Positions 4,154 to 43,014 of a stretch of DNA of 64,000 nucleotides are shown piece after piece. Numbering within the stretch: position 1 is the first letter of the stretch; each line of letters begins with the position of its first letter. The translations under genes and the position numbers were made by a program. A model generated the notes under the pieces. That model saw only the letters and a list, made by a program, of their open reading frames with translations. It was not told the origin of the DNA and ran no database searches. Source of the stretch: Escherichia phage Bp7; the sequence record NC_019500.1; one strand, given 5' to 3'.

Positions 4154-4154
4154 T

Positions 4155-4370: not shown

Positions 4371-4821
4371 GTTAGAAATCAGAAGTAATTTTCCGTGGCC
4401 ATCGTGTGCATTAAGTAACTTTGCTAAATGGCCTTTCGTTATGGATGGTATCCAATTTGGAGGGCTCGAAGGATTCCTCCAAGGGTGTAAGGTGAGAAAT
4501 CATGAACAACAAAAACGTATATTTGGGATGTCCGGTCTGGCCGCACAACAAACTGGAAGAGCTTATGCAAGAGCTGCGGACCGTGGGACGCTTTTCTGGC
4601 TTGGAATTCCCTTTTCAAGATACTCTACATCATGGAAAGAGTTGTATACAAATGCATATTTTGAAGCAGCGCTCCAAAACAAAGGATTCCGCGACGCATT
4701 ACAAGCTACAAAGGGCAAAGTTTTAAAGCATTCGATGGCGAGCCACCTTACAGAATGTGATACAATACTAACTGAAAAAGAGTTTATCGACATCCTAAAC
4801 AAATTGAGAGATTTATTATGA
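4354..4821 (+). CDS. NADAR / YbiA-like (DUF1768) domain protein, putative ADP-ribose-processing N-glycosidase/hydrolase
   Basis: LSNFAKWPFVMDG...EGFLQGCK matches the YbiA-family signature (FSNFAAWP..DG...EHYFQA.K); alternative start ATG 4363. Confidence 0.6.
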   Translation: MSKMSELEIRSNFPWPSCALSNFAKWPFVMDGIQFGGLEGFLQGCKVRNHEQQKRIFGMSGLAAQQTGRAYARAADRGTLFWLGIPFSRYSTSWKELYTNAYFEAALQNKGFRDALQATKGKVLKHSMASHLTECDTILTEKEFIDILNKLRDLL

Positions 4822-20109: not shown

Positions 20110-20337
20110 TTAGAAATCTTCCTCTTCCTCGTCGTCCATCGACTCCAATTCAGCTCTCTTACCAGCCAATGCATCACGCACGCTAATATCATCCGAATCA
20201 CGAAGTTCGGCTTCCTTACTACGAGTTTTGTAATACTTTTCCAATTCCTTCAGACCATCCATAGTCTGACAAGAACCAATTTTAGCCATGAAGCTTTCAA
20301 TAGATGCTTCCTGAATAACTTCTTTAAAGGTTTTCAT
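20110..20337 (-). CDS. UvsW.1-like small acidic protein
   Basis: 75 aa with acidic tail DDEEEEDF; position relative to uvsW. Confidence 0.55.
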   Translation of the reverse strand: MKTFKEVIQEASIESFMAKIGSCQTMDGLKELEKYYKTRSKEAELRDSDDISVRDALAGKRAELESMDDEEEEDF

Positions 20338-21116
20338 AATATTTCCTCGAAAAATTTGGTAACCATTTTACCGTAATGCACATTAGGATAACCGGCTTTA
20401 ATGGCTTCTTTTGTAAATTTACCAACTTTAAGCTTTCCTGTATTTATCCAAAGCTCTTTAAGCTCATCATACATTAACCAGTGTGGATATTTCTTAGCCA
20501 AAGTAGCTTGCCAATTTTTAGAATGGTCCTCAGACCTAAACGATTTCTTTACACCTTTATTGGCTTTGCCAGCTTTTGAACACGTTTCATAATCTCCGGC
20601 TTTAATAGGTGTAAATCCTTTCATTGCTTTAGACCTTTTGGCTATGGTCTCTTTGGATTGCTTGGAGCCTTTATTTTTGGTCCAAGCCTTTTCTAAAGCT
20701 TTTAATTTGGCTTCTGTTAATCCAACTTTAGCCATAGCTTTTCGGTGTATTTCTCTTCGTTCATCAGTCCATTCATAAGAACCGTTTGTATTACCAATCA
20801 TGGCTTCGCTTATTAATCTAGAAGCATTTTCTTTTAAAATGGAAATAGACCTAGAGCTTATCTCATTTAATCTTTTGCCACATGTCATACCAAATGCGGC
20901 ACGCCATAATTTTCCACCTTGAGCTTTAGCCAAGATTATATGGCCCAAAATATGTTCCCTAATAGTCAATGCAACTAAATTGTTAGGGTCATCGGAACCA
21001 CCTATCGACTTAGGAATAATATGATGAATTTCGATTTTACAGGGCGCAGTAGCTTTGGTCCATCCTCTGGACCTAGCATTCTCTATTAAATCATCGTAAA
21101 TTTTCTGATAATTCAA
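20334..21116 (-). CDS. HNH homing endonuclease (free-standing, Mob-like)
   Basis: HNH motif IEIHHIIPKSIGGSDDPNNLVALTIREH; apparent TTG start overlapping uvsW stop and TGA stop overlapping uvsW.1 ATG. Confidence 0.8.
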   Translation of the reverse strand: MNYQKIYDDLIENARSRGWTKATAPCKIEIHHIIPKSIGGSDDPNNLVALTIREHILGHIILAKAQGGKLWRAAFGMTCGKRLNEISSRSISILKENASRLISEAMIGNTNGSYEWTDERREIHRKAMAKVGLTEAKLKALEKAWTKNKGSKQSKETIAKRSKAMKGFTPIKAGDYETCSKAGKANKGVKKSFRSEDHSKNWQATLAKKYPHWLMYDELKELWINTGKLKVGKFTKEAIKAGYPNVHYGKMVTKFFEEIL

Positions 21117-22616
21117 AGCTGCACCTCTTTCATAACATAATTAAATTTCTCGTCGGCGTATCGTTGTATACGTTCCAATCCATGTTTCAGGCAATAATTT
21201 AAATGAACATATTTCTTTTTAGAATCTTTAGATTTAGGGCGGACTCCCATATCATCCACGAGGTCCCAGACTTGGGCCACTTGTTTGCTATCGTGCTTAC
21301 GTAGAACACGCCCAATTGTTTGCAGAACAATGATTTTAGATTTTACGCCGTGAGCAAATACAACGTGGTGAAGGTTCTTAACGGAAATACCAGTAGAGAA
21401 CACACCATAACTTGCCACAACAATAATACCCTTACCATTTTCCGCCATTACTTTCAGAGCATTACGCGTTTCGGTATTAACTTCACCTGATACGTAATAA
21501 ACTTCTTTATGTTGCTCTTTAACCATTTCAAAAAGAGTTTTACCGTGTTCGATGTTTTTAAACATCAGGAATACGTTCTCTTCTTTCTTAGCGAGTTTAA
21601 CAGCTAAATTAGCAACCCATTTATTACGACGAGTAGCCTTAGTAATGACCTTGATTTCTGATTGGTAATCTTTACCTTTCATCTTAACAGTGAATTCGTC
21701 TGGGTATCGAAGGAAAATACTGTTGATTTTAAGGTCGGTAACCTGTCCTTCTTCCATTAACTGGGAAGTGGATACCGGCTTAAACACATCACCAAACAAA
21801 CCCATATATTGCATTAAATTAGCTTTACCATCTTTTAAAGAACCAGACAAACCGAATTTAAACATACAGTTGGTTAGGCCTTCGATGATAGTAGAAATAG
21901 ATTTACCTGTAGCCAAATGGCATTCGTCGTTCATAAACATACCGAACTGAGCAAACCATTCTTTAGGTTGCTTGATAGCAGTTTGATAAGTTGAAACGTA
22001 AATCATTGCATCAGAATCACGAGCAGTACCTGAACGAATACCAAGCATTGCTGCTTTAGGGAACAATCGATAATCGATGAAGTCATTAATCATCTGGTCG
22101 ACAAGTGCAGTAGTAGGAACCAGAATAAGGATTTTACCTTCATAGTTCTCAACGTAATATCGACTCAGGAGCGCCTGGATTAATGATTTACCTGCGGATG
22201 TAGGTAAATTCAGAATTGCACGACGTTTTGTCAGGCCGTTGTATACGGCTTCATTCTGATACCAATGAGGCTCAATCTTGGTAGACCCTGAATAAATTTC
22301 TTGAGAAGCTACCCATGAATCAAAATCTTCACGAGAAATATCTTCCTGTTCAAGAATACGCGGGTCAATCCACAGAGAATATTCAAATTGTTCAGCGAAC
22401 TTTTTAATTTGAGGGACAAGTCCATAAGGGCAAGTTTACGGCAGTTACGTAATCTAGAAGAAGAAGACTTCCATCCCATTGCCCATAACGAAATTTAGGG
22501 TTGAATTTATATCCATCGGCTTCAAAGCTAAAATAGTCTCTGAGTTCGTAGAATGTGGATTCATCACACTCAATACGAACATGACTAAAATTATCGAAAT
22601 GTACTTGAATTTGCAT
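21113..22616 (-). CDS. uvsW: UvsW DNA/RNA helicase with apparent +1 frameshift near 22428-22430
   Basis: N-terminal 55 aa in one frame, rest (Walker A PTSAGKS, DECH, QTIGRVLR) in adjacent frame; switch at a GGG run. Confidence 0.8.
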
Positions 22617-24629: not shown

Positions 24630-25637
24630 ATGTTCAAGAAATATAGCAGTCTCGAAAACCACTACAACAGTAAGTTTATCGAAAAACTCCGTACTAATGG
24701 TTTGACTGGTGGTGAATGGGTAGCACGTGAGAAGATTCATGGAACCAACTTTAGTTTAATCATAGAACGTGACGCAGTCACATGCGCCAAGCGCACTGGC
24801 CCTATCCTCCCTGCTGAAGATTTCTATGGTTATGAAATTGTACTTAAGAACTACGCTGATTCTATTAAATCAGTTCAACATCTAATTGAATCGATTAATT
24901 ATCAGTCATACCAGATTTATGGCGAATTCGCTGGGACAGGTATCCAGAAGAATGTGGACTACGGCGATAAAGACTTTTATGTGTTCGATATCCGAGTTAC
25001 TAAAGAAGATGGCTCAGAATCTGTTCTAACCGATACATTGATGGAAGCCTTCTGTATTATCCATAAGTTTAAGGTAGCTCCATGTCTGGCCACTGGTAGC
25101 TTTGAAGACCTTATTAAACTTCCTAATGATTTTGATTCAGTTGTTCCTGATTATAATTTTGCAGTGGATAACGCAGGCTTAACTATTGCAAACTCAACCG
25201 ATTTTATTCCTAAGGTAGAAGGTAAGGTATTCACGGCTGAAGGCTTTGTATTGAAACCTGATGTTCCTACCTGGCTTCCAAACGGAAATCGTGTGGCGAT
25301 TAAATGTAAGAACTCTAAATTCAGCGAGAAGAAAAAGTCTGATAAGCCTATTAAAGTTGCAGTGGTTTTATCCCAAGATGATATGGATTTGATGTGGCAA
25401 TTCACTGATTATGTGACTGTTAACCGCATTAACAATGTCATCAGTAAGATTGGCGAAGTATCGCCGAAGGATTTCGGAAAGGTGATGGGCTTGACAGTCC
25501 AGGATATCCTTGAAGAAGCCGCCCGTGAAGAATTGGAATTAACTGATGCGGAAAATCCCGTTGAAGTTAAAAAGCAGCTCGTTGAGTGTGTAAAAGAAAC
25601 ATTAAGACATGTATGGATTGAACTAGTATCCAAATAA
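24630..25637 (+). CDS. rnlB: RNA ligase 2
   Basis: 335 aa; nucleotidyltransferase lysine motif EKIHGTNF; N-terminus matches remembered T4 Rnl2. Confidence 0.92.
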
Positions 25638-25663
25638 ACGATAAAGGGACCGTAAGGTCCCTT

Positions 25664-26944
25664 TTATTTTTCTAAAGGCGGTAATTTTACGCCGAGATAA
25701 GAACTCAATTGACTTTGATTAGCCATTTTGTCCATATCAGAACCATCAATAATGCGGGCTTCTTTATCGTCCTTAGCGACGGTATAAGGGTTTGCAGTCA
25801 ATGCATAACGAGCAAGCAATGCTACTGTAGGTTGTAAGCTTTCCGGGTCAACAATAACCTTAAATTCACCAACTGAAGTATCACCTTCTTCGTCAACCAC
25901 ATTCAAACCTTCCGTATAAGGCGCATAATATAAAGATGCGACCGTCTGTCCTTCACCCATCTGGGCATTTACACCAACAATAACATAATCACATGGACTA
26001 TTCATATCAGCATAAAGTGGTAGGCCATTCTTTAATATACCATAAGCCAATTCGTCCTGGTCTTCCTTTTTCTCAACCCAACCAGAGGCGGCGAGAATAG
26101 CAGCACAACGAGAACTAGCTACTGCATAAGTCCCGGCAAAAGAAGTCTGTCGTTGGACGGCAGAGTTCATCTCACACATATAATAATATAATGTGCGAGC
26201 ACGGTCCTGGGCATTATCGTAGCGAGGGTTGGTAAGGTCTAATACACCCTTTTCAGAAACACCCTGGACTTTAAAACGAGAGCTCACGGTAATTAATGAC
26301 TGTAATACATCCTTATTAATTTCTTCTGCCATTTGAATGCCTAGCAGATTTTCAACGAAATTAGGAGCATTAAACCCGTTAGATTCTAGGTCTTGGGCTA
26401 ATTCGACTGTCAATGAAGTTTTCAGTTTACGTGATTTAACTTCAGATTGCCATTTGTCGATGCGGAATCCGGTTTCAGCAATTTCAGGATGGCCTTGTTC
26501 AAATTTAGAAGTAATAGCAGCATCCGACACCATACGGATATGGCCGGCTGCCACTGCTTCAGAAATAACTTCGCTGAGGTTGGTTTCTGTGGTTCCGGCG
26601 AAAGGAGATGCTTCTAGAACTTTAAACACTACGCTTTCAAACTGGAACATATCACCGACCGCATAAGCTGTAGATGAATCAGTAAATTCTGGAATATTTT
26701 CACGTTCCGTCATACCAATCTGGCCCGCAAATGTTGCTCCACCAAGATAAGTCATTTTGTCGTCAGGGTTCAGTACACGTACCCCATACAGAGCAGCAAC
26801 CGGTTGATTTGTTTTTTGTTCAGCAACTAGGGCTTTAAAGATTCGTTTATTAGTTGCTTGGGTGTATGAAAGAAGAGCAGGACGGCCAACCGAGCTGGCA
26901 GCCGTCAATGTGGATTCTTTAATTAGGTCTACAATCTTAGACAT
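25664..26944 (-). CDS. gp24-like head vertex protein, divergent paralog
   Basis: 426 aa; shares LQSLITVS, VELAQDLESNGF, LARYALTANPYTVAKDDKEARIIDGSDMDKMA with adjacent gp24 at roughly half identity. Confidence 0.85.
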   Translation of the reverse strand: MSKIVDLIKESTLTAASSVGRPALLSYTQATNKRIFKALVAEQKTNQPVAALYGVRVLNPDDKMTYLGGATFAGQIGMTERENIPEFTDSSTAYAVGDMFQFESVVFKVLEASPFAGTTETNLSEVISEAVAAGHIRMVSDAAITSKFEQGHPEIAETGFRIDKWQSEVKSRKLKTSLTVELAQDLESNGFNAPNFVENLLGIQMAEEINKDVLQSLITVSSRFKVQGVSEKGVLDLTNPRYDNAQDRARTLYYYMCEMNSAVQRQTSFAGTYAVASSRCAAILAASGWVEKKEDQDELAYGILKNGLPLYADMNSPCDYVIVGVNAQMGEGQTVASLYYAPYTEGLNVVDEEGDTSVGEFKVIVDPESLQPTVALLARYALTANPYTVAKDDKEARIIDGSDMDKMANQSQLSSYLGVKLPPLEK

Positions 26945-28227
26945 TAATCAGCCTCGTAAATAATTGCCGGAAGTTTAACGCCAACCAGATAAGACATATT
27001 GCTCTGTCCAGCCATTAAATCCATATTGGTTGCATCGATAACACGAGCTTCTTTATCGTCTTTAGCCACGGTGTACGGGTTAGCTGATAGTGCATAACGA
27101 ACCATCAGAGAAATAGAAGGTTGTAATGAATCCGGGTCAACAATAACCTTATAAGCACCGACGTGTTCTTGGTCATCTAAATCTAAGCCTTCGGTATAGG
27201 GAGCGTAGAAAATAGAACCGACAACTTCATTACCGCCGTAATTCTCTTTAACACCAACGGTAACATAATCTAATGGACTGTTAACGTCACAAAACAGAGG
27301 CAGACCATTCAACAAATATCCGTATGCAGTTTCCGGAAGCCAATTATTATCTTCGGGTTTATGTTTTAACCAGCCAGAACCTGCAAGCATTGCAGCCACA
27401 CGACTTGAAGCCACAACAAACGTGCCAGAATAAGAAGTAGTTTTCTGGATTTCAGAATTCATCTCACAAACGAGTTCATAAAGTTTACGTGCAGATTCAG
27501 GAGCACTGTCATAAGACAAATCGATGATGCCGTTATCAGATACACCAGTAACTTTATAACGTTTGGATACGGTTATTAGAGATTGCAGAACGTCTTTATT
27601 AATTTCATCTGCCATTACTGTAGCCAAGAGGTCTTCTAAGAACGCCGGCGCGTCAAAGCCATTTGATTCCATATCCTGCGCTAATTCTACAGTCAAAGCC
27701 GTCTTCAATTTACGGGTCTTAACCGGAGCATTCCATTTATTAACCTGGAATACGGCATCAGAGATTTCTACATCACTCGCTTCAAATTTAGTGGTATGGG
27801 CAGCATCAGGAACCAGACGACATGTTAATGACACTAAACCTTCTTGAAGAGCATCAGCCAATTCTGTGGCGCTAGTGGACGCGAGTGGGCTTGCTTTAAG
27901 AGCCTTATAAACCACATTCTGATACTTGAAATATTCACCCTGAGCAATCGCCTGGGCCTTATCTGTGAGTTCTGGGATAGTTTCACGGTCTTTAGAACCA
28001 ACTTCACCACCATAAGAGGCACCTGTCTGGAAACTAAATTCATTATCAGGGGTAAGATATTTGACACCATACAGTGCAGCAATAGGCTGGCTAGTACGTT
28101 GTTCGGCGATAATATCACGGTAAATCAATTTGGTTGTAGCACGGGTCAAAGCAACAAGATTAGGGCGACCCAATGAGTTGCTGGAAGTAGTTGTTGACTC
28201 GCGCAGTAATTCGTTAATCTTTGCCAT
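26944..28227 (-). CDS. 24: head vertex protein gp24
   Basis: 427 aa; MAKINELLRESTTT... matches remembered T4 gp24. Confidence 0.9.
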   Translation of the reverse strand: MAKINELLRESTTTSSNSLGRPNLVALTRATTKLIYRDIIAEQRTSQPIAALYGVKYLTPDNEFSFQTGASYGGEVGSKDRETIPELTDKAQAIAQGEYFKYQNVVYKALKASPLASTSATELADALQEGLVSLTCRLVPDAAHTTKFEASDVEISDAVFQVNKWNAPVKTRKLKTALTVELAQDMESNGFDAPAFLEDLLATVMADEINKDVLQSLITVSKRYKVTGVSDNGIIDLSYDSAPESARKLYELVCEMNSEIQKTTSYSGTFVVASSRVAAMLAGSGWLKHKPEDNNWLPETAYGYLLNGLPLFCDVNSPLDYVTVGVKENYGGNEVVGSIFYAPYTEGLDLDDQEHVGAYKVIVDPDSLQPSISLMVRYALSANPYTVAKDDKEARVIDATNMDLMAGQSNMSYLVGVKLPAIIYEAD

Positions 28228-28255
28228 TGCGCTTTCCTTATTGAGGGTATATGTT

Positions 28256-28263
28256 TATTTATA
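28256..28263 (-). promoter_or_regulatory. late promoter TATAAATA for gene 24
   Basis: tatttata on plus strand just upstream of gp24 start. Confidence 0.45.
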
Positions 28264-28270
28264 AAAGTTG

Positions 28271-28299
28271 TTTACAGCAAGATTCTCACATGTTACTAT
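28271..28299 (+). promoter_or_regulatory. early promoter TTTACA-N17-TACTAT
   Basis: Read directly; drives the plus-strand ORF at 28329. Confidence 0.5.
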
Positions 28300-28328
28300 A
28301 GACCTATCAAAACATGAGGAGATTAAAA

Positions 28329-28595
28329 ATGAACAAGTTAAACTTTATTCGTACTACTCTTTCCGCTCTTGATAAAGACATCAAAGCTCTGGTAGAAAAA
28401 TTCGGTAACAATCCTAATGGTAATGCAGTGAATGCCTTAGTTAAGAAATACGAAGCCATGGCTTATGCTACCGACTTCTGGTGGAACGGTGAATACTCTA
28501 CCCATACCAAAGACAAATCTGGTAACTGGCTGAAAATCCAAGAAAATCGTATTGACTTCCGTGATATCATCAACCGCCGAGTTAAGATTGCATAA
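28329..28595 (+). CDS. hypothetical early protein inserted between late genes 23 and 24
   Basis: 88-aa ORF with GAGGAG RBS behind early promoter; opposite strand to flanking capsid genes. Confidence 0.5.
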   Translation: MNKLNFIRTTLSALDKDIKALVEKFGNNPNGNAVNALVKKYEAMAYATDFWWNGEYSTHTKDKSGNWLKIQENRIDFRDIINRRVKIA

Positions 28596-28608
28596 TACAG
28601 AAACAAGA

Positions 28609-28628
28609 ATGGGAGACCGAAGTCTCCC
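28609..28628. terminator. hairpin GGGAGAC-CGAA-GTCTCCC between convergent gene 23 and the small ORF
   Basis: Read directly; T-richer tail on minus side. Confidence 0.45.
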
Positions 28629-28644
28629 ATAATAAGGTTATATC

Positions 28645-30204
28645 TTAGATACCTTTAACATATACGCGACGGAAGTAACCATTCAGACCAAGGCTGTTAA
28701 CGATGTCAGGCATACCATTCTGGATACGTTTGGTAGGAGCCTGAGCAGCAGGGTCAGCGAACGGGTTGATACCGATACCGTAACGAGTTTTGAAGCCCAT
28801 TACCGGTTGGAAGTTCTTCGGATCGGAACCACGCAGCGGGGTCAGTGCAACGTACGGAGCATAGTAGATACCTGCGTCCATTTCGTTAGCGCCTTTATAA
28901 CCAATGGTGAAGTAATCGGAACGTGCATACTGGTCGATGTAAACGCGATATTTACCACCAAGAACACCGGCAAATACTGCTTTGGTTGTGTCAACGTTGA
29001 AACCTTGACCCAGACCTTGAGCTGCATAACTTACAGAAGTATCAACTGCAGCCAGTACGTTAACTACGTTACGGGAAGCGATGATGAAGTTACCAGCACC
29101 ACGACCGGTCTGACGAGCGATTTCCGCTGCTTCTTTATCAATCTGGAACAGAAGGGCTTTAAAGCTCTCACCGGCCCAACGAGCACCACGGATATCAATC
29201 GGGTCCTGGAAGTCAAACACACCAGCTTTAGCGCCGACGGTGTTAGTCATACCAGATTTACCAACCTGTGCAGAGTAGTTAATCCAATCGATAACTTCAC
29301 GGTTGATTTCGAGCATAATTTCGGTAGCAAGGATACCGGACAGTTCAGCATCTGCATCCATACCGTGTACTGCACGAAGGTCCTGTGCCAGTTCGATAGA
29401 GTAGCTTGCTTTCAGCTGACGGGATTTAGCTTCGATAACTTGTTTGTCGATGCGGAAGCCCATTTCGTTCCACGGGTTATCGGTAGAACCGTTAAAGCCT
29501 TCCTGAAGTTCAGCGATAGAAGTAGCCATACCTTCAGCCAATTCAGCCAACTTACCAGCTTCAATCAAAGCGGTAACAGCAGCATCCAGTTTAGCGGCAT
29601 CAGTAGCAGCAGCATCAACGGTTACAGCTTCAACAGCCTGGAAGTGTGCAGCACCGGTAGCTTCGAAGAAGTGGGAATAAATTTTACCAACTTCCAGAAC
29701 TTTGCTTGCAGCCAGTGCTTCGAAAGATTTAGCAGCACCCTGACCAGAGAACATAGCGTCCGGAGAATACATCGGATGGAAAGCTTCTTTAGCGCCAGCA
29801 GCGATAGGGTCTTTACCATAAACTGCACGAAGGGCAAATACCTGGCCGGTAGGGTTATTCAGAGGCTGAACACCACAAATGTCAAAAGCAATCAGATGAG
29901 GAATAGCACGACGAACCATACCCATTACTGCCGGCCCAATCTGAGTTACAGCACCAGAAGTCTGGCCAGCTGCGATATTGGTAGCATCATAACCGTGGTC
30001 ACCACCGATTTCAGCTTCGGTCAGGAAAGAACCAAATGCTTCAGAGATTTTTTCGTCACGATATTCCGGAGCAGTCAGGATGTCTTGTTCCTGGTTTTCG
30101 AAAATTTTAGCGATGATAGCTTGTTTAGAAGCACCAACGATTTCAGGAAGAGCTTCGTTTTCCAGCAGAGCGGACCATTTTTGAACTAATGCATTCTTTT
30201 TCAT
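28645..30204 (-). CDS. 23: major capsid protein
   Basis: 519 aa; long stretches identical to remembered T4 gp23. Confidence 0.97.
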   Translation of the reverse strand: MKKNALVQKWSALLENEALPEIVGASKQAIIAKIFENQEQDILTAPEYRDEKISEAFGSFLTEAEIGGDHGYDATNIAAGQTSGAVTQIGPAVMGMVRRAIPHLIAFDICGVQPLNNPTGQVFALRAVYGKDPIAAGAKEAFHPMYSPDAMFSGQGAAKSFEALAASKVLEVGKIYSHFFEATGAAHFQAVEAVTVDAAATDAAKLDAAVTALIEAGKLAELAEGMATSIAELQEGFNGSTDNPWNEMGFRIDKQVIEAKSRQLKASYSIELAQDLRAVHGMDADAELSGILATEIMLEINREVIDWINYSAQVGKSGMTNTVGAKAGVFDFQDPIDIRGARWAGESFKALLFQIDKEAAEIARQTGRGAGNFIIASRNVVNVLAAVDTSVSYAAQGLGQGFNVDTTKAVFAGVLGGKYRVYIDQYARSDYFTIGYKGANEMDAGIYYAPYVALTPLRGSDPKNFQPVMGFKTRYGIGINPFADPAAQAPTKRIQNGMPDIVNSLGLNGYFRRVYVKGI

Positions 30205-30225
30205 GTGTTGTATAACCTTATTAAA

Positions 30226-31041
30226 TTAAGAAATTCGTGATGCTGCGATTGCAGACAGGTCCGCGAAGGACAGGGTAGGCTTAGCGCCTTTTTCTTCAAC
30301 TGCTTCTGAAATGTAATTCAGTGCCGCAGCATCGTCTACATTTTTATTTATAGCGGCTTCGGTGATTGGGTTTTCAACGTCAGACTGACCTTTAACCATT
30401 TCAACAATAGCGCCAATTTTTTTACCGAATGCATCGGAATAATCCATGCCTTCTACCAGAGAACTAACTTTTTCTTTTTGAGATTCAGTCAGGTCTTTAG
30501 TTGCTTCCGTAACAGCAACTTCACGCTGCACGTAATTAATATACGCATCGCGCATACCAACTTCTTCGAACAGACGAGCGGTTTCATCTTTCTGCTCTTG
30601 GAGCTCTTCTTCCATTTCAGCAACAACATCTACTGCTTCTTCTGGAACAACCACATTGTGTTCAACAAACAGTTCTTTCATACCCATCAACATGGATTCG
30701 AACAGTTCGGCTTTAATACCTTTATCAACAGCCAGCTGGTTTTCAGCCATCCATTCTTTAGCAACGTGGTCAAGGAAACGACCGGCAGCTTCTTGGATTT
30801 TCTTATCGGCTTTTTCTTCAGCTTCTTCTTTATTTTTCTCGACTTCTTCTTCCGCTTTTTCAGCGATTTTAGCGATGTGAGATTCAGCCAGTTTCACGGC
30901 GTGTTGCTTGACGGTAGCTTCGAATACAGTGCCGAAAGTTTCTTTTGCTTCCGGAGAAATATTAACTGATTCGAAAATACTATCAAGAGCAACGGAAGCA
31001 TCAATATTCTGTGCTTCGGCGATCAGTTGTTCTTTAAGCAT
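30226..31041 (-). CDS. 22: prohead core scaffold protein
   Basis: 271 aa, acidic coiled-coil composition; synteny. Confidence 0.88.
   Translation of the reverse strand: MLKEQLIAEAQNIDASVALDSIFESVNISPEAKETFGTVFEATVKQHAVKLAESHIAKIAEKAEEEVEKNKEEAEEKADKKIQEAAGRFLDHVAKEWMAENQLAVDKGIKAELFESMLMGMKELFVEHNVVVPEEAVDVVAEMEEELQEQKDETARLFEEVGMRDAYINYVQREVAVTEATKDLTESQKEKVSSLVEGMDYSDAFGKKIGAIVEMVKGQSDVENPITEAAINKNVDDAAALNYISEAVEEKGAKPTLSFADLSAIAASRIS
30346..30353 (-). promoter_or_regulatory. late promoter TATAAATA for gene 23, inside the end of gene 22
   Basis: tatttata on plus strand. Confidence 0.4.
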
Positions 31042-31071
31042 TTTGTAGTCCTGTTGTTTAGATAATAATAT

Positions 31072-31707
31072 TTATAACGCTTTTTTCATGGCCTCTGCGA
31101 GAGCCATAAAGGCGTCATCGGCACTGGTATCGGTTTCTACCGTTTGTGATTCTGTAATTTGCTTTGGAGTTACATAAGCATCAGGAGCAGATGGTCCCCA
31201 TACTGCATCAACACCGACGGTTAATTTATAACCTTCGTTTACACGCTTATATCCTTTGTTGGTTTCGGTTAAAGAACCAAGACCGCGAGAACTAACACCA
31301 GGAACCCAGCCAGCTCGGATATTTGCAGCTAGTTTATCACCCGGGCCATGGTCACCTTCGATGATACGTGCACGTCCATAAACATCATTACCTTTCCACC
31401 ACATATCTTCAATAATGATAGCAGCTTGCATAGGGTCGACGTTAGCACGAGGTGGATGGTTTAATTCTCCTAAAGCTTGTTTAGTAGCAACTTGTTCTGC
31501 CATGTAATCGGCAACGGCTTTTTCCAAAATAGGTTTTGGGTAAAGGCGTTTATTACGGTTAACTACCTCTGCTTGCATGAAAATGCCTTCTATATAAAGG
31601 CCGGGAGCAAGACCAGAATTTTTTCCATCATGAGATTCCAGCATTGGAACCCCATCGATAATTTCACCTGGTTGTCCCCAATGTTCGATGAGCAATTCAG
31701 GTTTCAT
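31072..31707 (-). CDS. 21: prohead core protease
   Basis: 211 aa; synteny and size as T4 gp21. Confidence 0.9.
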   Translation of the reverse strand: MKPELLIEHWGQPGEIIDGVPMLESHDGKNSGLAPGLYIEGIFMQAEVVNRNKRLYPKPILEKAVADYMAEQVATKQALGELNHPPRANVDPMQAAIIIEDMWWKGNDVYGRARIIEGDHGPGDKLAANIRAGWVPGVSSRGLGSLTETNKGYKRVNEGYKLTVGVDAVWGPSAPDAYVTPKQITESQTVETDTSADDAFMALAEAMKKAL

Positions 31708-32135
31708 TAGTTAAGTCCAAAAGCTTTACGTTTAGAACGGGCTTTCTTACGCTTACGTTCGGCACGTACTTGAGTAGACGGATTAGCACGTTTGGTTTTA
31801 GATGCTTTACGAGCAATCTGACGGCGTTTTGCTTTAGATAAACCTGTCGTTTGGAACGCATTACGTTGACGGGTTTTAATATCTTTAGTACGAGTAAGCT
31901 CACCTTTAGAGGAAACGTGTTTAACGATAAATTCGTTAAGAGCCATTGATTCATTTAAAGAACCAAGAGCGATAGCACATTCGATATCGCCTTCAGCAAT
32001 CATGTTCTCTACAAGATTATTTATATCGCTTTTCTCGAGCGCTTCAGAAAGAGCAGCAAAACGTCCCTGTGCTTCTGGAATTTTGGCCTCTACGCTTTCT
32101 AGAGTTAATTCGTAATCATCAGGGATAAGGAACAT
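31707..32135 (-). CDS. 68: prohead core protein
   Basis: 142 aa; basic C-terminus; synteny. Confidence 0.8.
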
Positions 32136-32380
32136 TATTCGTCGTCCTCGTCATCATCCGCATCGTCAGATTCTTTTTTGTCTTTCTTATCTGCTTTATC
32201 GGATTTTTCGTCGTCTTCGTCATCTTCGTCAGCTTCTTCGCCTTCAATCATAACGGAGCGAGCAATTTCTGCTTTACGGGCTTCAATCAAAGCGGTTACT
32301 CGAGATTCGATAAGCGGGGCTGCTGCTTTACGAACTGCTACGAGGTCGTTTGATTTAATAGCTTCGATTAAATCTTCCAT
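32135..32380 (-). CDS. 67: prohead core protein
   Basis: 81 aa, acidic tail; synteny. Confidence 0.8.
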
Positions 32381-33953
32381 TAGAAATCCTCTTCTTCTTC
32401 ATCTGGGTTTTGGAAACGAGCCTCTTTAGACTCTTCTTCAATTTGCTTAGCTTCTTGATTAATTTCTTCGTCGGTCATTTGGAGGAAATCTTTCATAGCC
32501 GTTTGATGTGAAATGTACTTACCAATAAATGGTTCAGCCATCGTTAGCATATTGATTCTGCGTTCCATGATTTCAGCATCTTTCATTTCACTGAAATAGC
32601 TATCACGGTTAAACGTAACTTTAATATTATTTATTTCCTTTTCCCACTCATCTTCTGTAATAATCTTTTTAAGAATGAGGTTTGTTTTTAACGGGTCTAG
32701 GAAAATTTCTTCAAATTTGTTTTGTAGTTGACGAATCCATTTAGAGAATTTTAATTCGTCACGAGTGATTGCTGTACCGGCATCAAACATAACACCAGAA
32801 TTAGACTCGCTAGGGATACGTGATTCAGGAACACGCAACGCACGGTAAAGTGCTGTGCGGAAATAAAGAACGTCATCCATATCACTCATACCAGTAGCAC
32901 CTGGCATTGTATCAACTTCTGTTACCGCTTTACCATCACGACGTTGCAACCAATAGTCTTCAGTCATGGACATATTGTGTTGTTGGTTTTTAATTTTACC
33001 TGTCGAAGCATCATACACCACACGGTTTTTCATCGTGTTCATGATATGTTGCATTTGTGCTGCAGCCTTACGTGAAGGCATATTACCTGTATCGATATAA
33101 AACACACGACGGTCAGGAGCACGTGTAATACGGTAGATGACCATTGCGTCTTCCATCAATTTAAGCTGGTTTGCAGGCTTAATAGCACGTTGCAAATAGC
33201 CAATGATGTTTTTACCACAACAATCTAATAATCCAGAATGAGCATAAACCACTGCAGCACGAGGAATTTTAACTTTAGTCCCGGCTGAATAAATGCGTCC
33301 ATCTGCGCAATAGCTTTCATGACCTGTGTCGTAAACGAAAAACTCGCGATATCCGTCTACAACTTTAACGCCATCTTCCATACGTGTAACGATTTCACGA
33401 ATATATTGGACTTGGCGTGGGTCTAAGCGACGAAGCTCTTGTACGCCATCTTTCATTTTTTTAGGGTTTATAATTTTATGAAAGAAAATTCTTGAGTCTA
33501 CATACCAGCGTTGGAAATGGTCAGTGCCTTTACGTTGGAAATTTAAAAGGTTTAAAACTTCACTGAATTCGGCCAAGATTTTATCTTTAATTGCTTGACT
33601 AAATTCTGTCCCGTCTAAATTCAATGCAACTACTTCTTTATCATCTCATAGACAATAGCGTCAGACACAATTTCCTGTACGGCGTTGTCGACTTCATAGT
33701 TGTTCATTAAATTACGGTAGGTATCAATAAGTTCCCTGGTATTTTTAACTTCAGGCTCATTACTACCAAACATCTGTTGCATAAGAGCATTATAAGGAAT
33801 ATTTTGCTCTTGTGTCTCAATTTCGCGAGCGCCATCATCAAGCTTAGGTGCGGTGACAGACTCTAAATTGTTATTAATTTGTTGTTTGAATTCTTTTTCG
33901 TCTTCATTAGCCCATGGCTTAAGAAAACTTAATATTGTATTAAAGTTTGCCAT
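32380..33953 (-). CDS. 20: portal vertex protein with apparent single-base deletion near 33642-33647
   Basis: N-terminal 107 aa and C-terminal 414 aa lie in adjacent frames and together align to T4 gp20 (about 524 aa). Confidence 0.88.
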
Positions 33954-34002
33954 TAGAGTCTCCGATGAATGGGATAAGGAGCCGAAGCTCCTTGATAATT
34001 CT

Positions 34003-34010
34003 ATTTATAC
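34003..34010 (-). promoter_or_regulatory. late promoter TATAAATA upstream of gene 20, followed by leader hairpin
   Basis: ctatttatac plus strand; hairpin AGGAGCCGAAGCTCCT at 33976-33993. Confidence 0.45.
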
Positions 34011-34592
34011 TCATTCATTTTCATGTTTGTGATAACGTGTTATAGCCGAACGAGTTGATTCAACACCACAGATAGGGCAAATCATCCTTGGCTGATTAAT
34101 CTTTTTGCCTTTAGCCGGATGTTCTTTACCAAACATCGGATTACCTTCACCAGACATAGCTTTGGCTTGGTCTGGTCGCTTACGTCCTTTTAGAGCTTTA
34201 GAATGTTCAGGCCTCTTTTTACCTAACCTACAATCTCTTTGTAGCTGTTTGGCATGTTCACTCATTGGAATCCCTTTACGAGACATTCCAAAGAACCCGT
34301 CAGGCTGAGCTAATGACATATTTATATAGTTTTTAGATTTAACTACATTATACTTTATTTGAAGCTCTTTCTCAGCTATACGAGCTTCTTTATCGGTTTC
34401 AAATAAAGATAAAATTCTGGTTTTGAAAAGGTGCGGATTTTCTTTACGTTCTAGATTCCAAATCTTTTTATATGCTTGGGATAATACAGAACCATTATAT
34501 CCTTCTTTGAGAATCCTTTCAACGTATGTTGAGCCAATATAACGACGGGGTAGTTTAGACCCCGTGTATATGGTTAAGTAAGTACAATACAT
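34011..34592 (-). CDS. GIY-YIG (Seg-like) homing endonuclease
   Basis: N-terminal YLTIYTGSKLPRRYIGST, basic C-terminal DNA-binding region; intergenic between 20 and 19. Confidence 0.6.
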   Translation of the reverse strand: MYCTYLTIYTGSKLPRRYIGSTYVERILKEGYNGSVLSQAYKKIWNLERKENPHLFKTRILSLFETDKEARIAEKELQIKYNVVKSKNYINMSLAQPDGFFGMSRKGIPMSEHAKQLQRDCRLGKKRPEHSKALKGRKRPDQAKAMSGEGNPMFGKEHPAKGKKINQPRMICPICGVESTRSAITRYHKHENE

Positions 34593-34659
34593 TCTAAACT
34601 CCTTGACTTCATTGTTTGAATGTATTTATACTATCATAATTTGCTATAAAAGTAAAAAC

Positions 34660-35151
34660 TTATTCCCACCAGTCAATAGCAAATGTGCTTTCAAATGTTT
34701 CTACCTCGTTATTCGAGTCCCAGTCCATCTGGACTTCACCAACGTTAGTAGGCCATAAGCCGTAAATTGTAACTTCTTTGGTCACAGTCTTGCCGTCACG
34801 ATGGAACTGGCGAACTACTGCTTGTTTCTTATATTCTGCAGGTGCTGCACCGGTAATTTCATTGGTCATACCGTGACAGAGATTCTGCCAATCGACAATT
34901 GCTTGACGGGTGTCATGTGCATCATCGTTATAAATGGTAATTGTCCAATCATCAAACGTACGGTCACCAGCTACGTTAATTTTACGGTTCATGTAGCCAA
35001 CCGGTACTTTTTCTACAATGCCTGCCGGCATAGGGGCTGCTTTACATTTAAAGCTAAAGTTTTTACCGAGAAATGGAATTTCCACTTCGAAAAGGTTAGG
35101 GCGTGCAAAGTCACCTGACTCGAAGGCCCTAGTGATATCGGTCAACTCCAT
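34660..35151 (-). CDS. 19: tail tube protein
   Basis: 163 aa; matches remembered T4 gp19 (RAFESGDFARPNLF). Confidence 0.95.
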   Translation of the reverse strand: MELTDITRAFESGDFARPNLFEVEIPFLGKNFSFKCKAAPMPAGIVEKVPVGYMNRKINVAGDRTFDDWTITIYNDDAHDTRQAIVDWQNLCHGMTNEITGAAPAEYKKQAVVRQFHRDGKTVTKEVTIYGLWPTNVGEVQMDWDSNNEVETFESTFAIDWWE

Positions 35152-35188
35152 TGGCGACCTCCATCTAAGTTAAATTCTTGATAAGTTT

Positions 35189-35860
35189 TCATGATAGTTT
35201 TCCATTTGGTTGTTTTGATTCAATCATATTTATAAGAGTTTTTAAGCTCATCCCACAGCCATCTGATTTGGAAAGATTTTCTTCCCACGGAATAATTTGC
35301 AAGTTACAAATATGGCCTATATGTTCTGCGGGTATTTTATTATCATAACCAAATTTCTTAGATATTATATGGTCTAATTGATAAGCACCTTTGACTCCGC
35401 ACTTGCCTATTTTAGTAAAATTCTTCATTTTACTTATTTCATTTCTATATTTATACTGATGACGCTTGACATCCATACAATATTTATGATATTTTTTCTT
35501 ATCAATCCAGTGTTCTTTAGATTTGAGACCTTTACCTGTTCTATTTTTGGAAATTTTAGGCCCTTTGGTTTTACGGATTTTTATGCCTTCATCAGAATTC
35601 CAATATTCTTTTCTTGTTTCTGAATAGACTTCCCAGCGATGTTCTTTACAGAACTTAGAATTTGTTTCATTAAGACGTCCTTTTGTTACAGTATAATAAG
35701 TGCCACATTTATCACATTTACATGTAACAGCAATTTTTCCAGGACAATCTTCTAATTTTATTAAATGAGAGCTTCCACTTTTAACTTGATATCCGAGATT
35801 TTTAAAAGCAGAAACATTGCGATTCGTTATAGGTATTTCAAATAGAGTATTAGTAATCAT
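35189..35860 (-). CDS. HNH homing endonuclease with N-terminal Cys cluster
   Basis: QLDHIISKKFGYDNKIPAEHIGHICNLQIIPWEENLSKS; late-promoter-like TATAAATA at 35866-35873. Confidence 0.75.
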   Translation of the reverse strand: MITNTLFEIPITNRNVSAFKNLGYQVKSGSSHLIKLEDCPGKIAVTCKCDKCGTYYTVTKGRLNETNSKFCKEHRWEVYSETRKEYWNSDEGIKIRKTKGPKISKNRTGKGLKSKEHWIDKKKYHKYCMDVKRHQYKYRNEISKMKNFTKIGKCGVKGAYQLDHIISKKFGYDNKIPAEHIGHICNLQIIPWEENLSKSDGCGMSLKTLINMIESKQPNGKLS

Positions 35861-36041
35861 ACTTATATTTATATACCAGAAAGTCGCAGGATTGAGCCTG
35901 CGACGTTTTTAGTTATACAGTTGATAAATCATATTCCTAAAGAATAATCAACCCCAGGCGCAATTCTGCGTGATGTACGCTGTAACCAAACTCATGGTAT
36001 AATGGTTTTAGGTTCTTTATATTACAGCCTGGGATAATAGA

Positions 36042-38024
36042 TTATACTAAAGGTCCAATCAATTCATCAAAGTCAGCACCAGTGCTCGTCGCGACGAAAT
36101 TCAATGTAATATAGTTAATACTGCGAGCAGGTTTAACATAGATATTAGCAATAAACTCGTTACGGTCGATAACCGCAGGGGTGTTCACTGTAGTATCACA
36201 AACCACACGTCCTTCATAAATCCCACCAAGTGCCTTAATACCATCTAAGTACTGAGAAACTTCCATACGGAAGCTTGAACGAGTGAAGTTGTCGTTCAAT
36301 TCAAACAGTTTATATTTAGAGGCATCACCGATATTTTTCTTAAGCATGTTGAACAGACGGCGAACGTTAATGTGGTCCATCGGAGATGGAACTTTGGTTG
36401 CAGTCTTATCACCAAACAATACGAAACCATCGCCACCAGCAAAACCAACAACCGGGTTAATAGCTTCTTGGTACATGCGGTCACGTTGAGCTTGGCGCGG
36501 TTCAATTGCCAATTTCAGAACGTTAAGAATCTGGCCACGGTTATAACCTGCCGGAGACATCCAAGGCTGAGAAACATCATCAGTACGTGCACACAAACCA
36601 GCCATATCAGCGGCCAGAGGCACCCAACGGTTTACGTCATTATATTTGTCATACTGATATTTATAGTTACCATCAATAGCAGCATAAGTGGTGCTAATGT
36701 TCATGTTGTTGGCATCGAAAGTACCTGCACCGGTACGCCAGTCGATAAGATTATCTACTGCACGAGTCAATGGAACGTTAACCAACAGTCCTTTAGGAGG
36801 AGAAATAAATGCCAAGCAATCCTGACGTTCATCAGCAATACTAACAACGTGTTTCTGGACTGTAGAAGCAACTTCATCACCTTCACCAGCAACAGCACCA
36901 GCAATCAAAAGGTTAATATGGAGTGCTTCACGGTCGGCAAACAAATCCCAACCCTGCATCAAATCACCTGCAGTAACCTGGTCGTTAGCAGATACACCAC
37001 CCATAAGATTGATGATACCACTAAAACCGGCCGGCCAGTTCAGAGAGGTAGCGAAGATATAGTTAGAAGTACCTTTAGCGAAATAGTCGTCAAGATAAAT
37101 GTTATTACCGTAAACGTCTTTTTCACCTTCTTTGGTAGAAAGTACGACAGATTCTACGATAGCGCCGTCACGACGAACAATAATCGCGTATTGGTCATCT
37201 GTTTGTGGGCCGTAATTAAATACCGCCTTGGCAATAGAAGCACGAGTACCGCCATTTGGATAAATATCCAACATTTTAGTAGAACCAGCGTCATAAGCCG
37301 CTTTAGAAACAATTTCAACTTCCAGAGTACTACCAATTTCACCAGGATAAAGGGCGACCACACCAGGCATACCAAACTGTTTAAGAGATGCTTGGAATTC
37401 CAGGGAAGTAATAACTTCTTCACTGTTCTCTGCTTCAGTCAACAGAATACCGGAATCGGTTACAATTTTACCGACAGTAATAGTACCAGAAACACCGGAA
37501 GAGGCAGAAGTAACTTCAGCAGTCCACGCAGGGCCTAGGTTCGGATACTGGTTAACAGAACGAGCATAAGAAATAATCTTGCCGGTAGGAATAAACACTG
37601 ATAGAATTTTACCGTCTGTATCGACCGAAGTTACACGACCTTCAGATTCAACAACAGTCTGGTTATATTTGATATTAATTTTATCACCTACCGCATAGTT
37701 AGAACCTGCAGTAGTAATAGTGGTTTGGACGTTACCTGCTACCGGAGACGCGTTTTTAGCGAATTCACGGTTAACAACACGAACAGTACGAAGGTCGTTA
37801 CCATACTGGAGGAAGTTCATACCCGACATGAAGTAATCAGCAACTTCGTTATTAGGACCTCCAAATAAGTCGACCAGTTCAACTTCATTAGTAATCTGAG
37901 TTACCTGGAAAGCAGGGCCCCACTGGAATTTACCAACCAGCGCTGCACGACCCGTTGCGTTACGAACGACAGTACTCTGTACGGACGTTTCTTTGAGCTC
38001 AATGCCCGGTGATAATAAAGACAT
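36042..38024 (-). CDS. 18: contractile tail sheath protein
   Basis: 660 aa; MSLLSPGIELKETSVQSTVV as T4 gp18. Confidence 0.97.
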   Translation of the reverse strand: MSLLSPGIELKETSVQSTVVRNATGRAALVGKFQWGPAFQVTQITNEVELVDLFGGPNNEVADYFMSGMNFLQYGNDLRTVRVVNREFAKNASPVAGNVQTTITTAGSNYAVGDKINIKYNQTVVESEGRVTSVDTDGKILSVFIPTGKIISYARSVNQYPNLGPAWTAEVTSASSGVSGTITVGKIVTDSGILLTEAENSEEVITSLEFQASLKQFGMPGVVALYPGEIGSTLEVEIVSKAAYDAGSTKMLDIYPNGGTRASIAKAVFNYGPQTDDQYAIIVRRDGAIVESVVLSTKEGEKDVYGNNIYLDDYFAKGTSNYIFATSLNWPAGFSGIINLMGGVSANDQVTAGDLMQGWDLFADREALHINLLIAGAVAGEGDEVASTVQKHVVSIADERQDCLAFISPPKGLLVNVPLTRAVDNLIDWRTGAGTFDANNMNISTTYAAIDGNYKYQYDKYNDVNRWVPLAADMAGLCARTDDVSQPWMSPAGYNRGQILNVLKLAIEPRQAQRDRMYQEAINPVVGFAGGDGFVLFGDKTATKVPSPMDHINVRRLFNMLKKNIGDASKYKLFELNDNFTRSSFRMEVSQYLDGIKALGGIYEGRVVCDTTVNTPAVIDRNEFIANIYVKPARSINYITLNFVATSTGADFDELIGPLV

Positions 38025-38056
38025 TTTGAATCCTCTTGGTTATGCTTTATTGTTAT

Positions 38057-40363
<2,307 letters not shown>

Positions 40364-40367
<4 letters not shown>

Positions 40368-41185
40368 GGGTTTCTCCTTGGTGCTGGAGGCGCCGGCTCG
40401 ACAGGCACTGGAATATCTTGTGAATATGTTTGAACGGAACTTCCATCCCATTCTTTTTCTTCTACACCTCTAGGAACCACTTCGCTATCAACCGATTCGA
40501 AATTACCTTCAGGAGCGAGTTCCTTTGAGTTGGCAAAGAAATCAAGATAAATGGTTTTAATTTCGCCTTCCATTTCCTTCACAGGAGGATATAACCAACC
40601 ATTAACCTCAAACATCATAGACCACTCTAAGCGACGTCTAGAAGTGGTATCACCTTCTAATTGTTCATCCATTGCTATAGATTGGAACACAATACGGATA
40701 TCACGGTCAAATTTAATTTCGTTTGTATAGAGTTCAGTGATAGTTGTATTGAAGTGAGGTTGGAAATAAGGCATAATCTGTTCTACAATTTGGAACATAT
40801 CATCTTGGGTTCTAGTGTAAATACCCAGTTCGAAAATCATTTTAACCGGAGTAGGAGAATATTGGCTGACACGCTTACGTGGGTCGCCATTCTCAAATTG
40901 AATTTGTGTTCTGTTTTGAAGGGCTGTTTTATATTGTGAGTTGTAAAGCATATCAACCATTTGGAGGTTCATACGCGGAAGAACTGTTTCCACTTTAGCT
41001 TTTTGTTCGGCCCGTTCTTTAGCTGTCATATTAGGATTTGGAATATTCTGTACTGCCGTCCATTTACCCAAATTTGCCATAAATCTTTCTTTAGAAGCAT
41101 ACGTAATAGGAACCTTAATAAATTTAAGTCCTGTATCTTCTCTTTGGCGCGCTACTTGGACATGGGAAAATAAATCACCCATCAA
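40364..41185 (-). CDS. 15: tail sheath stabiliser / tail completion protein
   Basis: 273 aa; synteny. Confidence 0.88.
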
Positions 41186-41271
41186 AACAATGTAGCGACG
41201 CAGCGATGAATTGTACCAGTGGCCAAAAATAAATCACCTCTCAAAATGGCGCACCATGCGCCATGTATTAT

Positions 41272-42045
41272 TTAATCATCTAAAAAAGCATCATCAAATG
41301 CTGTAGGAGGAGCATCCTCTCCTCGTCCATTAATTACAACATAAGGATGTACGAATTCCGCCGCTTCAGCATTAATCTCATTGACCTCTTCATATTGAAT
41401 GTCGGAGATATCAGCCAATCCGTCGATATTCTTAACAGGCATTAAATCAAGCTCACTAAACTCAGGGATATTAATACCTTCATTTCTCTGTAATTCAGGG
41501 CGAAGTTCTTCACCATTGTAAATGAACTTGGTAGCGGTGATGCGCCGCTGGACGTTAGCTCCTACTTGATAGAATGGGTCGTAAGGTTGTACCCAGTTAA
41601 TTTCGAATAGGCTGTTGTCCATTGGGAAATAAATCAAATCACCTGAAACAGGTTCAGTGCCATTGCATTGATGTTTAAAAAGGTTAGGGTTAATTGTGAT
41701 TGTTACTTCGTCATTAACCATCATACCGAACTTACTGAAATAAGTATTGTCACCGGAATAACCTTCAAAGGAATCCAAATAACCTGCAAATTTCCAGGCT
41801 TTAGTAAATTTGTTCTGAAGGTCTTCGCCAAATAGCTGGTCTGGATTAACGTATTCACGTGGTATATAATAAAGCTCAATACCACGCATTTGAATAGACT
41901 CAGCAACTAAAGCATCAGCCAATGTTTGGGTATTCTCATGCTTGTAGAAGTTGACGAACGGATTCATTATTTCAGTTTCGTTCGTGTTAGCATAGCCAGT
42001 ATTATTTTCCAGCTTGGCAAATAAACTCGAATCGAAAGTAGCCAT
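41272..42045 (-). CDS. 14: neck protein
   Basis: 257 aa; synteny. Confidence 0.88.
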
Positions 42046-42047
42046 AA

Positions 42048-42983
42048 TTATCCAATTAAAATAGGTGTTGGTGGGTCGAGTAAATCTAATTCTTCGCGAA
42101 GGCGTTCTTTTTCTAAACGAGCTTCTTCAATCAATCGAATACCATCTACAGTGGTTCCACCCGCAAGTTGCATGCCTTGGTGTTTGGCCAAAATATTACC
42201 ATTGACTTCTTTAACCAATGCCGTCGCATAATCTTTGACCCAACGGTTATTATATGAACCATCTTGCAAACCAAGGTCTTCACCTGCCCTCATACCTGAA
42301 ATACGACGAGCCGGGTTATCCCAAATAGCTCCGGGGCTCCATTCATTTTCGTCGCACCCACCAGAGGCATATCCATATCCTGCGGTATTTCCTACCATAG
42401 AATCGACCCCATTAAAAGAGCGAGTATAAACTTCAATTACAATAAAATCGCCTTTAACAAAGTTACCCATTACCTTCAACTGTTCAGTGGCATCGTTATA
42501 CCAATAATCAGGCAATGGAACCAAAAGGTCCTGCATCATAGAACGATATTGCATTAATTGTGTAAAATACCCGAGGTCAGCACCAAAGGCATTAGGCCCA
42601 AAGCTGTTACAAGAAGTTCCAAGACCGCCATTAATACCAGCTAGGCCTAATACAAAATCAGTAAACCATGGATAAGTCGCTTGGCCATCCATAGATGTTA
42701 AAGAACCTACATTAGTTCTTAAAATTTGTGTTACTGCAAATATATTACGGCCTTTAAGGTCAAATACGCCGTTACGGAATTTTTCTTCGTCATCATGGCC
42801 TATATAAAAAGCCTGATAACCTTTGTTATAGCCGTTATAATGATACTCACCGTAGAGCTCCAGGGCGCGCTGGATGCAATCGTATACTTGGTCTGTAGTT
42901 ACTTCAATATTCGTAATCGGTGCACCCAGGCGGCGCAGGATTGCGTCCTTGAGTTGCTTAGGGTTATATGATTCACTTGCCAT
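42048..42983 (-). CDS. 13: neck protein
   Basis: 311 aa; synteny; late promoter TATAAATA at 43005-43012. Confidence 0.88.
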
Positions 42984-43014
42984 GGTTTATTCCTCTAATA
43001 ACCGTATTTATAGC

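Follow-up and report, generated by a model that had tools for sequence, protein, structure and literature searches.

Why should a phage keep two genes for its head vertex protein where its relative T4 has one? The question is raised by a 64,000-nucleotide stretch of Escherichia phage Bp7 (sequence record NC_019500.1; hereafter the window), in which two adjacent genes of the gp24 type, 24a and 24b, follow the gene for the major capsid protein gp23. A first-pass annotation, made from the letters alone, described the locus as a tandem duplication of gene 24. Our analyses uphold the two gp24 genes in tandem but not a recent or lineage-specific event; on our trees, 24b is an old, monophyletic and separately evolving gp24 lineage, and by its closest matches the window phage is a Dhakavirus, a JS98-like relative of T4. 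The pair forms a conserved two-gene vertex module, and we lean towards the view that both products would be processed corner proteins and that 24b would be specialised.

The membership of both proteins in the T4 gp24 head vertex family is attested by domain content, full-length colinearity, fold, propeptide motif and late position. There are exactly two minus-strand open reading frames (ORFs) here, with the coordinates and lengths (427 and 426 amino acids) first annotated, and their products are 55% identical (235/428 positions, 77% positives, E=7e-177 by BLASTP), in keeping with the 'roughly half identity' claimed for them. Identity to T4 gp24 is 70% for 24a and, by MAFFT, 57% for 24b (55.9% by tblastn), and both proteins match the T4 protein (PDB 1yue) end to end, over residues 1-423/424 (E=8e-198 for 24a and 1.4e-150 for 24b). 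The gp23 chains in the PDB reach only ~1e-11 to either protein, and the gp23 of the window itself is only 27-28% identical to 24a or 24b; colinearity with T4 gp24 and distance from gp23 together confirm the identification as gp24-type vertex genes. Both proteins match PF07068 (Gp23), at 330.2 bits (24a) and 323.8 bits (24b) against a curated cut-off of 24.4, and PHROG 138. The likeness to T4 gp24 (1yue; gp24* in 5vf3, 7vs5 and 8gmo) thus comprises ~423 colinear residues, both family matches, a shared Glu10-Ser11 site and a position after g23 behind a late promoter, the head genes of the window running in the order 20-67-68-21-22-23-(orf)-24a-24b. The differences are that T4 has one gene where the window phage has two, and that 24b carries clade-specific substitutions in its N-arm together with a C-terminal signature, VKLPPLEK, that gives it a tail distinct from that of T4 gp24.

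Mature gp24* chains of T4 (5vf3, 8gmo) begin at residue 11 of both 24a and 24b, which aligns the sequences LLRE (24a) and LIKE (24b) with the site cut by gp21 in T4; an N-terminal I/L-x-E motif had been noted in both copies, and the alignment of Glu10-Ser11 with that site bears it out. In T4 gp24, Glu10 is the cleavage site of the propeptide (PMC9958956). An alignment of 60 gp24s (a-type, b-type and single-copy) shows no variation at this glutamate or at the following Ser11, and a homologue of gp21, the prohead protease, is encoded in the window at 31072-31707. The propeptides of 24a and 24b are accordingly predicted to end at LLRE and LIKE, with cleavage after Glu10. An AlphaFold2 model of 24b (predicted local distance difference test score, pLDDT, 75; predicted template modelling score, pTM, 0.73), in which disorder is found mainly in residues 1-32 and 348-368, has as its best PDB match the T4 gp24* chain 5vf3_a (template modelling score, TM, 0.86/0.88; root-mean-square deviation 3.4; 416 columns), against a TM of ~0.6 for gp23 chains. 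The HK97-type fold with the gp24 insertion domain is therefore recovered for 24b through the model, and is judged for 24a from its 70% identity to T4 gp24. Disruption of fold-critical regions, which the first-pass annotation had named as grounds for refutation, is seen neither in the full-length alignment to T4 gp24 nor in the 24b model.

The age of the pair was assessed with neighbour-joining trees on Kimura distances, one of 22 sequences (200 bootstraps) and one of 142 sequences (100 bootstraps). In the smaller tree the a copies (99-100% support) and the b copies (100%) group separately, each as a clade, and both subtrees read PWKp16,(S16,(Dhakavirus)); the identical topologies indicate that the pair is older than the divergence of these genera. 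The larger tree has a b clade (n=26, 100% bootstrap) and, without it, a clade (n=83, 100%) that takes in T4, Mosigvirus, Karamvirus, Moonvirus, Kanagawavirus, KIT01, PEi20 and every a partner. In the a subtree and in the b subtree alike, the Erwinia FBB1 group takes the basal position. The two genes do not, therefore, behave as in-paralogues: 24a groups with the T4-type gp24s, to one of which it is 70% identical as against 55% to its neighbour, and 24b falls in a clade of its own. Distant outgroups are 42-45% identical to both. Residue D208 is found in all a/T4-type proteins and is replaced by glutamate in b and in 97% of the outgroups, one clean site that backs the position of b outside. Across 16 genome pairs, distances between a orthologues and between b orthologues are correlated (r=0.83, the values being non-independent), b being slightly more conserved on average (mean difference 0.233 vs 0.276). 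The alignment and phylogeny that the first-pass annotation had proposed as a check thus return two intact gp24 genes, and they place the b clade outside the T4/a clade, with the pair present in at least four cultured groups, so that the duplication cannot be called recent.

Not every detail of this history is simple vertical descent. The a partners of the b genes P0014 and P0015 group with otherwise single-copy lineages, and so either b must have been lost repeatedly or the cassette must have moved laterally; the 24a-24b cassette may have spread laterally long ago. A recent foreign origin of 24b is unsupported, since its guanine plus cytosine content (GC), GC at third codon positions (GC3) and codon usage resemble those of 24a and the trees of a and of b largely agree. 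Gene conversion, or concerted evolution, between the copies is likewise ruled out by a-b distances that are equal within genomes (0.445) and between them (0.448).

The distribution of the module was examined by tblastn of 24b against 50,697 phage records. Matches to gp24 occur in 1415 records at 1532 places, giving ~117 records with two places, or ~8% of those that bear gp24. The pair was confirmed in Salmonella phage S16 (Gelderlandvirus), Klebsiella phage PWKp16 (Marfavirus), VR5 and JS98, and the record tables list two matching places for Erwinia phages IT22 and Cronus, for Salmonella phage CGG4-1 and other Gelderlandvirus records, and for one Proteus-labelled record; FBB1 has three places, since its record begins within the b gene. 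In the protein search, b-type proteins grade from 90% to 66% identity, and there is then a step to single-copy, Jiaodavirus-like proteins at 62%. All five b-type proteins followed up in contigs from sequencing runs (P0014, P0015, P0016, P0019 and P0020) are encoded directly downstream of an a-type gene with a stop/start overlap, P0019 being the protein that NCBI names the Erwinia phage FBB1 vertex protein, and P0024 (61% identical) and the deep-branching P0030 are products of single genes. At every locus checked (Dhakavirus, Gelderlandvirus, Marfavirus, an Erwinia FBB1-type contig and four metagenomic contigs) 24b lies immediately 3' of an a-type gene, the two overlapping in TAATG or ATGA. The window fits the same definition of the module: between g23 and rnlB, an a-type gene whose stop codon overlaps the start codon of a b-clade gene directly behind it. 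A single gene 24 is found in T4, as first annotated, and likewise in the Mosigvirus, Karamvirus, Winklervirus, Moonvirus, Serratia 4S, Acinetobacter, Krischvirus, Pseudotevenvirus and Tulanevirus representatives.

An additional same-strand ORF of 239-346 amino acids stands right after the last gp24 gene in several relatives (L003, 5308-6042; L018, 4890-5930; L017, 2676-3674; L023, 5327-6046; L004, 5326-6129), one of these ORFs giving a faint match to collagen repeats. The window has no such ORF, and 24b is followed there by a terminator and then by rnlB.

At the level of annotation the two-gene arrangement is already known. By megablast of positions 25000-30300, 76 phage records cover at least 80% of the query, the closest being LQ5 and vB_EcoM_FB (99.5%), E33 (99.4%), PSD2002 (99.2%) and WG01 (99.0%), with JS10 at 93.4% and JS98 at 90.2%; JS98, IME281, IME341 and VR5 are classed as Dhakavirus in their records or UniRef names. 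The names 24a (upstream) and 24b (downstream) date from the GenBank record of JS98, in which the pair is labelled 'gp24 head vertex protein', and are also used in JS10 and IME08; VR5 and VR20 have 'capsid vertex protein I/II', CGG4-1 has 'head vertex protein I/II', and in S16 the products are gp108 and gp109. Compared with their JS98 counterparts, the copies in the window show 95% (a) and 91% (b) identity. All of these annotated pairs (JS98, JS10, IME08, VR5, VR20, CGG4-1 and S16) have the same genes in the same order, with the same overlap and the same neighbours, g23 upstream and rnlB convergent downstream; nothing essential differs, and the window represents another Dhakavirus isolate. Two 'head vertex protein' genes are listed, with no remark on them, in the LQ5 paper (PMC12895675), and in the open-access literature that we searched and checked we found no discussion of the evolution or function of the pair. 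The sequence feature is therefore ordinary for this phage group, and its interest lies in the functional question posed by two vertex paralogues that are inherited together under constraint.

That constraint is evident among Dhakavirus orthologues, where the ratio of nonsynonymous to synonymous substitution rates (dN/dS, Nei-Gojobori) is 0.04-0.06 for 24a and 0.05-0.07 for 24b. Judged by these ratios and the trees, strong purifying selection has acted on both copies from a time before Dhakavirus, Gelderlandvirus and Marfavirus diverged. Columns conserved at >=90% with the same residue in a-type and b-type proteins number 142 and include the C-terminal half. Fixed differences between a/T4-type and b proteins occupy 17 columns, eight of them within T4 residues 25-68. 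The outgroup majority has the a state at 11 of the 17, which identifies b as the derived copy, and the derived b changes include (in T4 numbering) T32N, L34R, Y36F, K56R, Y57V and T68G; position 415 (L/Y) is likewise diagnostic of the two paralogues. Over the first 60 alignment columns, 24a shares 80-90% of its residues with T4, as against 43-58% for 24b. The N-terminal region of T4 gp24 is disordered in the prohead and, upon expansion, comes to lie on the outer surface, where the N-arm binds neighbouring subunits (PMC9958956). By analogy, a remodelled N-arm is what one might expect of a subunit with different neighbours.

Natural exchanges of the module provide a further perspective. The gp23 of KIT01, which is listed under Dhakavirus, is 98% identical to that of the window, as is the gp23 of JS98, and in place of the pair KIT01 (L011, 2501-3781) has one gp24, 68% identical to 24a and 55% to 24b. 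Its closest relative is a gp24 of the Serratia 4S type, at 75%, and sequence comparison indicates that it is a natural cassette replacement from a distinct lineage. Fusion of a and b through unequal crossing-over was considered for this gene, given overlapping blastn matches to both, and was rejected when sliding-window protein identity revealed no switch point. The reverse is seen in the metagenomic locus L023, which has the pair although its gp23 and that of single-copy Roth68 are 97% identical. Together these swaps indicate that the vertex module exchanges independently of the major capsid protein. The single gp24 of Roth68 (L004, Jiaodavirus-like; 4001-5281) looks mosaic, its first 60 residues being 80-90% identical to 24a and T4, and its columns 120-340 being closer to 24b (55-74%) than to 24a (34-64%).

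The expression signals of the locus (Table 1) suggest joint rather than separate use of the two genes. A ribosome-binding site, AAGGAAAG, lies between the late promoter and the 24a start, and a scan of the window found no TATAAATA match between 24a and 24b and none preceding 24b, the sole motif for the pair being 5' of 24a. The junction of the two genes has a Shine-Dalgarno-like GAGG 7 nt to its 5' side, within 24a, and a TAATG or ATGA overlap recurs in 7/7 other pairs read (S16, PWKp16, L017, L018, L020, L022 and L023). The terminator beyond 24b is shared with the convergent rnlB gene. One late promoter, one terminator and a one-base overlap imply that 24a and 24b are read from one late mRNA, and translation of 24b is probably coupled to that of 24a. 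The possibility that a promoter or terminator divides the genes was considered and rejected: there is no TATAAATA, and a weak 7-bp hairpin in 24a (27238-27219) is within chance expectation. Across the window the TATAAATA octamer has 21 matches where 7.2 are expected; the copies are mostly on the minus strand, from 28256 to 43012, ahead of head and tail genes, and their excess and placement agree with a late transcription programme of the T4 type. Between g23 and 24a there is also a 93-amino acid ORF (28314-28595, plus strand), antisense to the late genes and without a Pfam match; its equivalent is annotated in JS98 (orf173), VR5, KIT01 and Mosigvirus TU01, and it is thus conserved whether one or two gp24 genes follow.

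Table 1. Coordinates of the vertex genes and associated signals in the window.
Feature	Position	Strand	Description
Gene 24a	26944..28227	-	427 aa; T4 gp24 orthologue; N-terminus MAKINELLRE/S (slash, predicted cleavage)
Gene 24b	25664..26944	-	426 aa; diverged gp24 paralogue, b clade; N-terminus MSKIVDLIKE/S (slash, predicted cleavage)
Gene 23, major capsid protein	28645..30204	-	519 aa; neighbour upstream of 24a; distant paralogue of both gp24s
T4-type late promoter TATAAATA	28256..28263	-	Exact match, 28 nt upstream of 24a ATG
TAATG junction	26942..26946	-	Last base of 24a stop is first base of 24b start
Bidirectional terminator	25643..25664	.	9-bp GC-rich hairpin with T-runs on both strands; starts at last base of 24b stop
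Terminator-like hairpin	28609..28630	-	Just 3' of gene 23; splits end of g23 transcript from 24a-24b unit

How might two such proteins be used? On the reading that we favour, 24a and 24b would both be built into the prohead shell, both be trimmed by gp21, and both end up in the eleven non-portal pentameric corners. That both are processed shell subunits is the most likely interpretation of their propeptides and fold, and it is likely that both are present in the virion at pentameric corners. 24b would be specialised and not redundant, its clade-specific fixed changes being concentrated in N-arm residues 25-68, and the likeliest outcomes would be either that different paralogues occupy different classes of corner on the prolate head or that pentamers are mixed, both of which are speculative. 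The heterogeneous or specialised vertices proposed in the first-pass annotation are plausible, and compatible with all of our results. There is a parallel in the older duplication that gave rise to gp23 and gp24, where a gene with the capsid fold was likewise doubled and one copy tuned to a special position in the lattice; the hexamer and pentamer roles of gp23 and gp24 are known from structures, whereas a difference in position between 24a and 24b is hypothetical. T4 mutants that bypass gp24 indicate that the occupancy of corners is evolutionarily flexible (PMC9958956; PMC10580926).

Several points weigh against this reading and the deep history on which it draws. We found no virion proteomics, knockout or structure of any two-copy phage in the searchable literature, and we infer the presence and location of 24b in the virion. 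The confidence of the 24b model is moderate, at pLDDT 75. Some b genes have a partners (P0058, P0087) that group with single-copy gp24s, and the tight co-adaptation of a and b to which heteropentamers would point is not evident. KIT01 shows that a Dhakavirus gp23 lattice can work with a single gp24, and the shell has no strict structural need of 24b. Finally, the trees are distance trees in which a long b stem could draw the b clade artificially to the base, and independent support for placing b outside the a/T4 clade comes from only one clean site, D208.

The alternatives fall into those that concern the origin of 24b and those that concern its function. It is barely conceivable that either copy is a decaying or unexpressed pseudogene. 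Other genes of the window, g20 and uvsW, do contain frameshifts, which means decay or sequence error nearby; but in the window and in all relatives examined both vertex ORFs are intact, both have a dN/dS of 0.04-0.07, b is on average the more conserved copy, and the Shine-Dalgarno motif and overlap favour translation of 24b. Strong purifying selection on both copies likewise tells against an unexpressed member, a prospect raised in the first-pass annotation. Nor do we give much credit to a recent, lineage-specific tandem duplication whose downstream copy diverged fast, which we consider very improbable. In its favour, the two genes lie side by side and agree in orientation and length, and with the derived state at 11 of 17 fixed differences the b stem did gather changes. 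Such an origin would nevertheless not leave b outside the fully supported clade that unites 24a with the gp24s of T4, Mosigvirus, Karamvirus, Moonvirus and Kanagawavirus, nor b no further than a from the distant outgroups, nor congruent a and b subtrees across at least four cultured groups, and synonymous sites between a and b are saturated (proportion of synonymous differences, pS, 0.73).

Turning to function, the two might be interchangeable or conditional vertex proteins, each alone able to build all eleven corners, with the second kept as an alternative, for instance for other physical conditions in the gut or for escape from a host factor or defence that targets one vertex protein; this we hold to be possible and rather unlikely. 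It would accommodate KIT01, with the same gp23 but a single gp24, and the reverse swap between L023 and Roth68; b is paired with a-type partners of different a lineages, which suggests no dependence on one particular a, and gp24 adds to the resistance of the T4 capsid to low pH and digestive factors (PMC10580926). A dN/dS of ~0.05 on both copies in several genera does not sit easily with pure redundancy, however, and the strictly kept gene order and overlap, with no promoter belonging to 24b itself, enforce co-expression and not alternative expression. No defence system, moreover, is known to be triggered by gp24. Less probable again is a role for 24b away from the corners, either as a transient prohead or assembly factor (a trigger of gp21, for example) or at a special non-pentameric position such as beside the portal. 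The concentration of derived b changes in the N-arm could reflect other neighbours, and in T4 the binding of gp24 is thought to trigger activation of the gp21 protease (PMC9958956). Against this, 24b is far nearer to gp24 (57%) than to gp23 (28%), its modelled fold is at TM 0.86 to 5vf3_a as against ~0.6 to gp23 chains, the 142 columns common to a-type and b-type extend through the C-terminal half, and there is no sign that assembly interfaces have been lost.

If both proteins do serve as corner subunits and different paralogues take different classes of corner, the pair would be a natural system for studying what determines the identity of a corner in a prolate head, and would show how far the vertex protein tunes capsid stability. 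This is of relevance to display and delivery platforms based on T4, and to the use of JS98- and S16-type phages in therapy and biocontrol. A more far-reaching version strikes us as doubtful: the two-gene module would be ancestral to the crown T-even-like phages, the single gene 24 of T4 would reflect secondary loss, and 24b, with its remodelled N-arm, would occupy a distinct subset of corners (the apex opposite the portal, or one five-membered ring) and 24a the rest. Were it true, it would amount to position-specific pentons in a tailed phage.

Some other features of the window deserve mention. The portal gene g20 (32380-33953, minus strand) is split into ORFs of 107 and 414 amino acids by an indel at ~33645, a single missing base relative to LQ5 (TTTATCAT-CTCATAGA vs TTTATCATCCTCATAGA); as g20 is essential, an error of sequencing or assembly looks likelier here than a biological change. 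The helicase gene uvsW (21113-22616, minus strand) is broken into 326 and 70 amino acids by indels at 22428-22448, where seven extra bases are present over ~20 nt relative to LQ5, in which uvsW is one gene of 1497 nt. Just downstream of uvsW, a 260-amino acid ORF (20334-21116, minus strand) with an HNH-type motif (EIHHIIPKSIGGSDDPNNLV...) lies in a stretch of ~780 bp without counterpart in LQ5, which is probably the insertion of a free-standing homing endonuclease.

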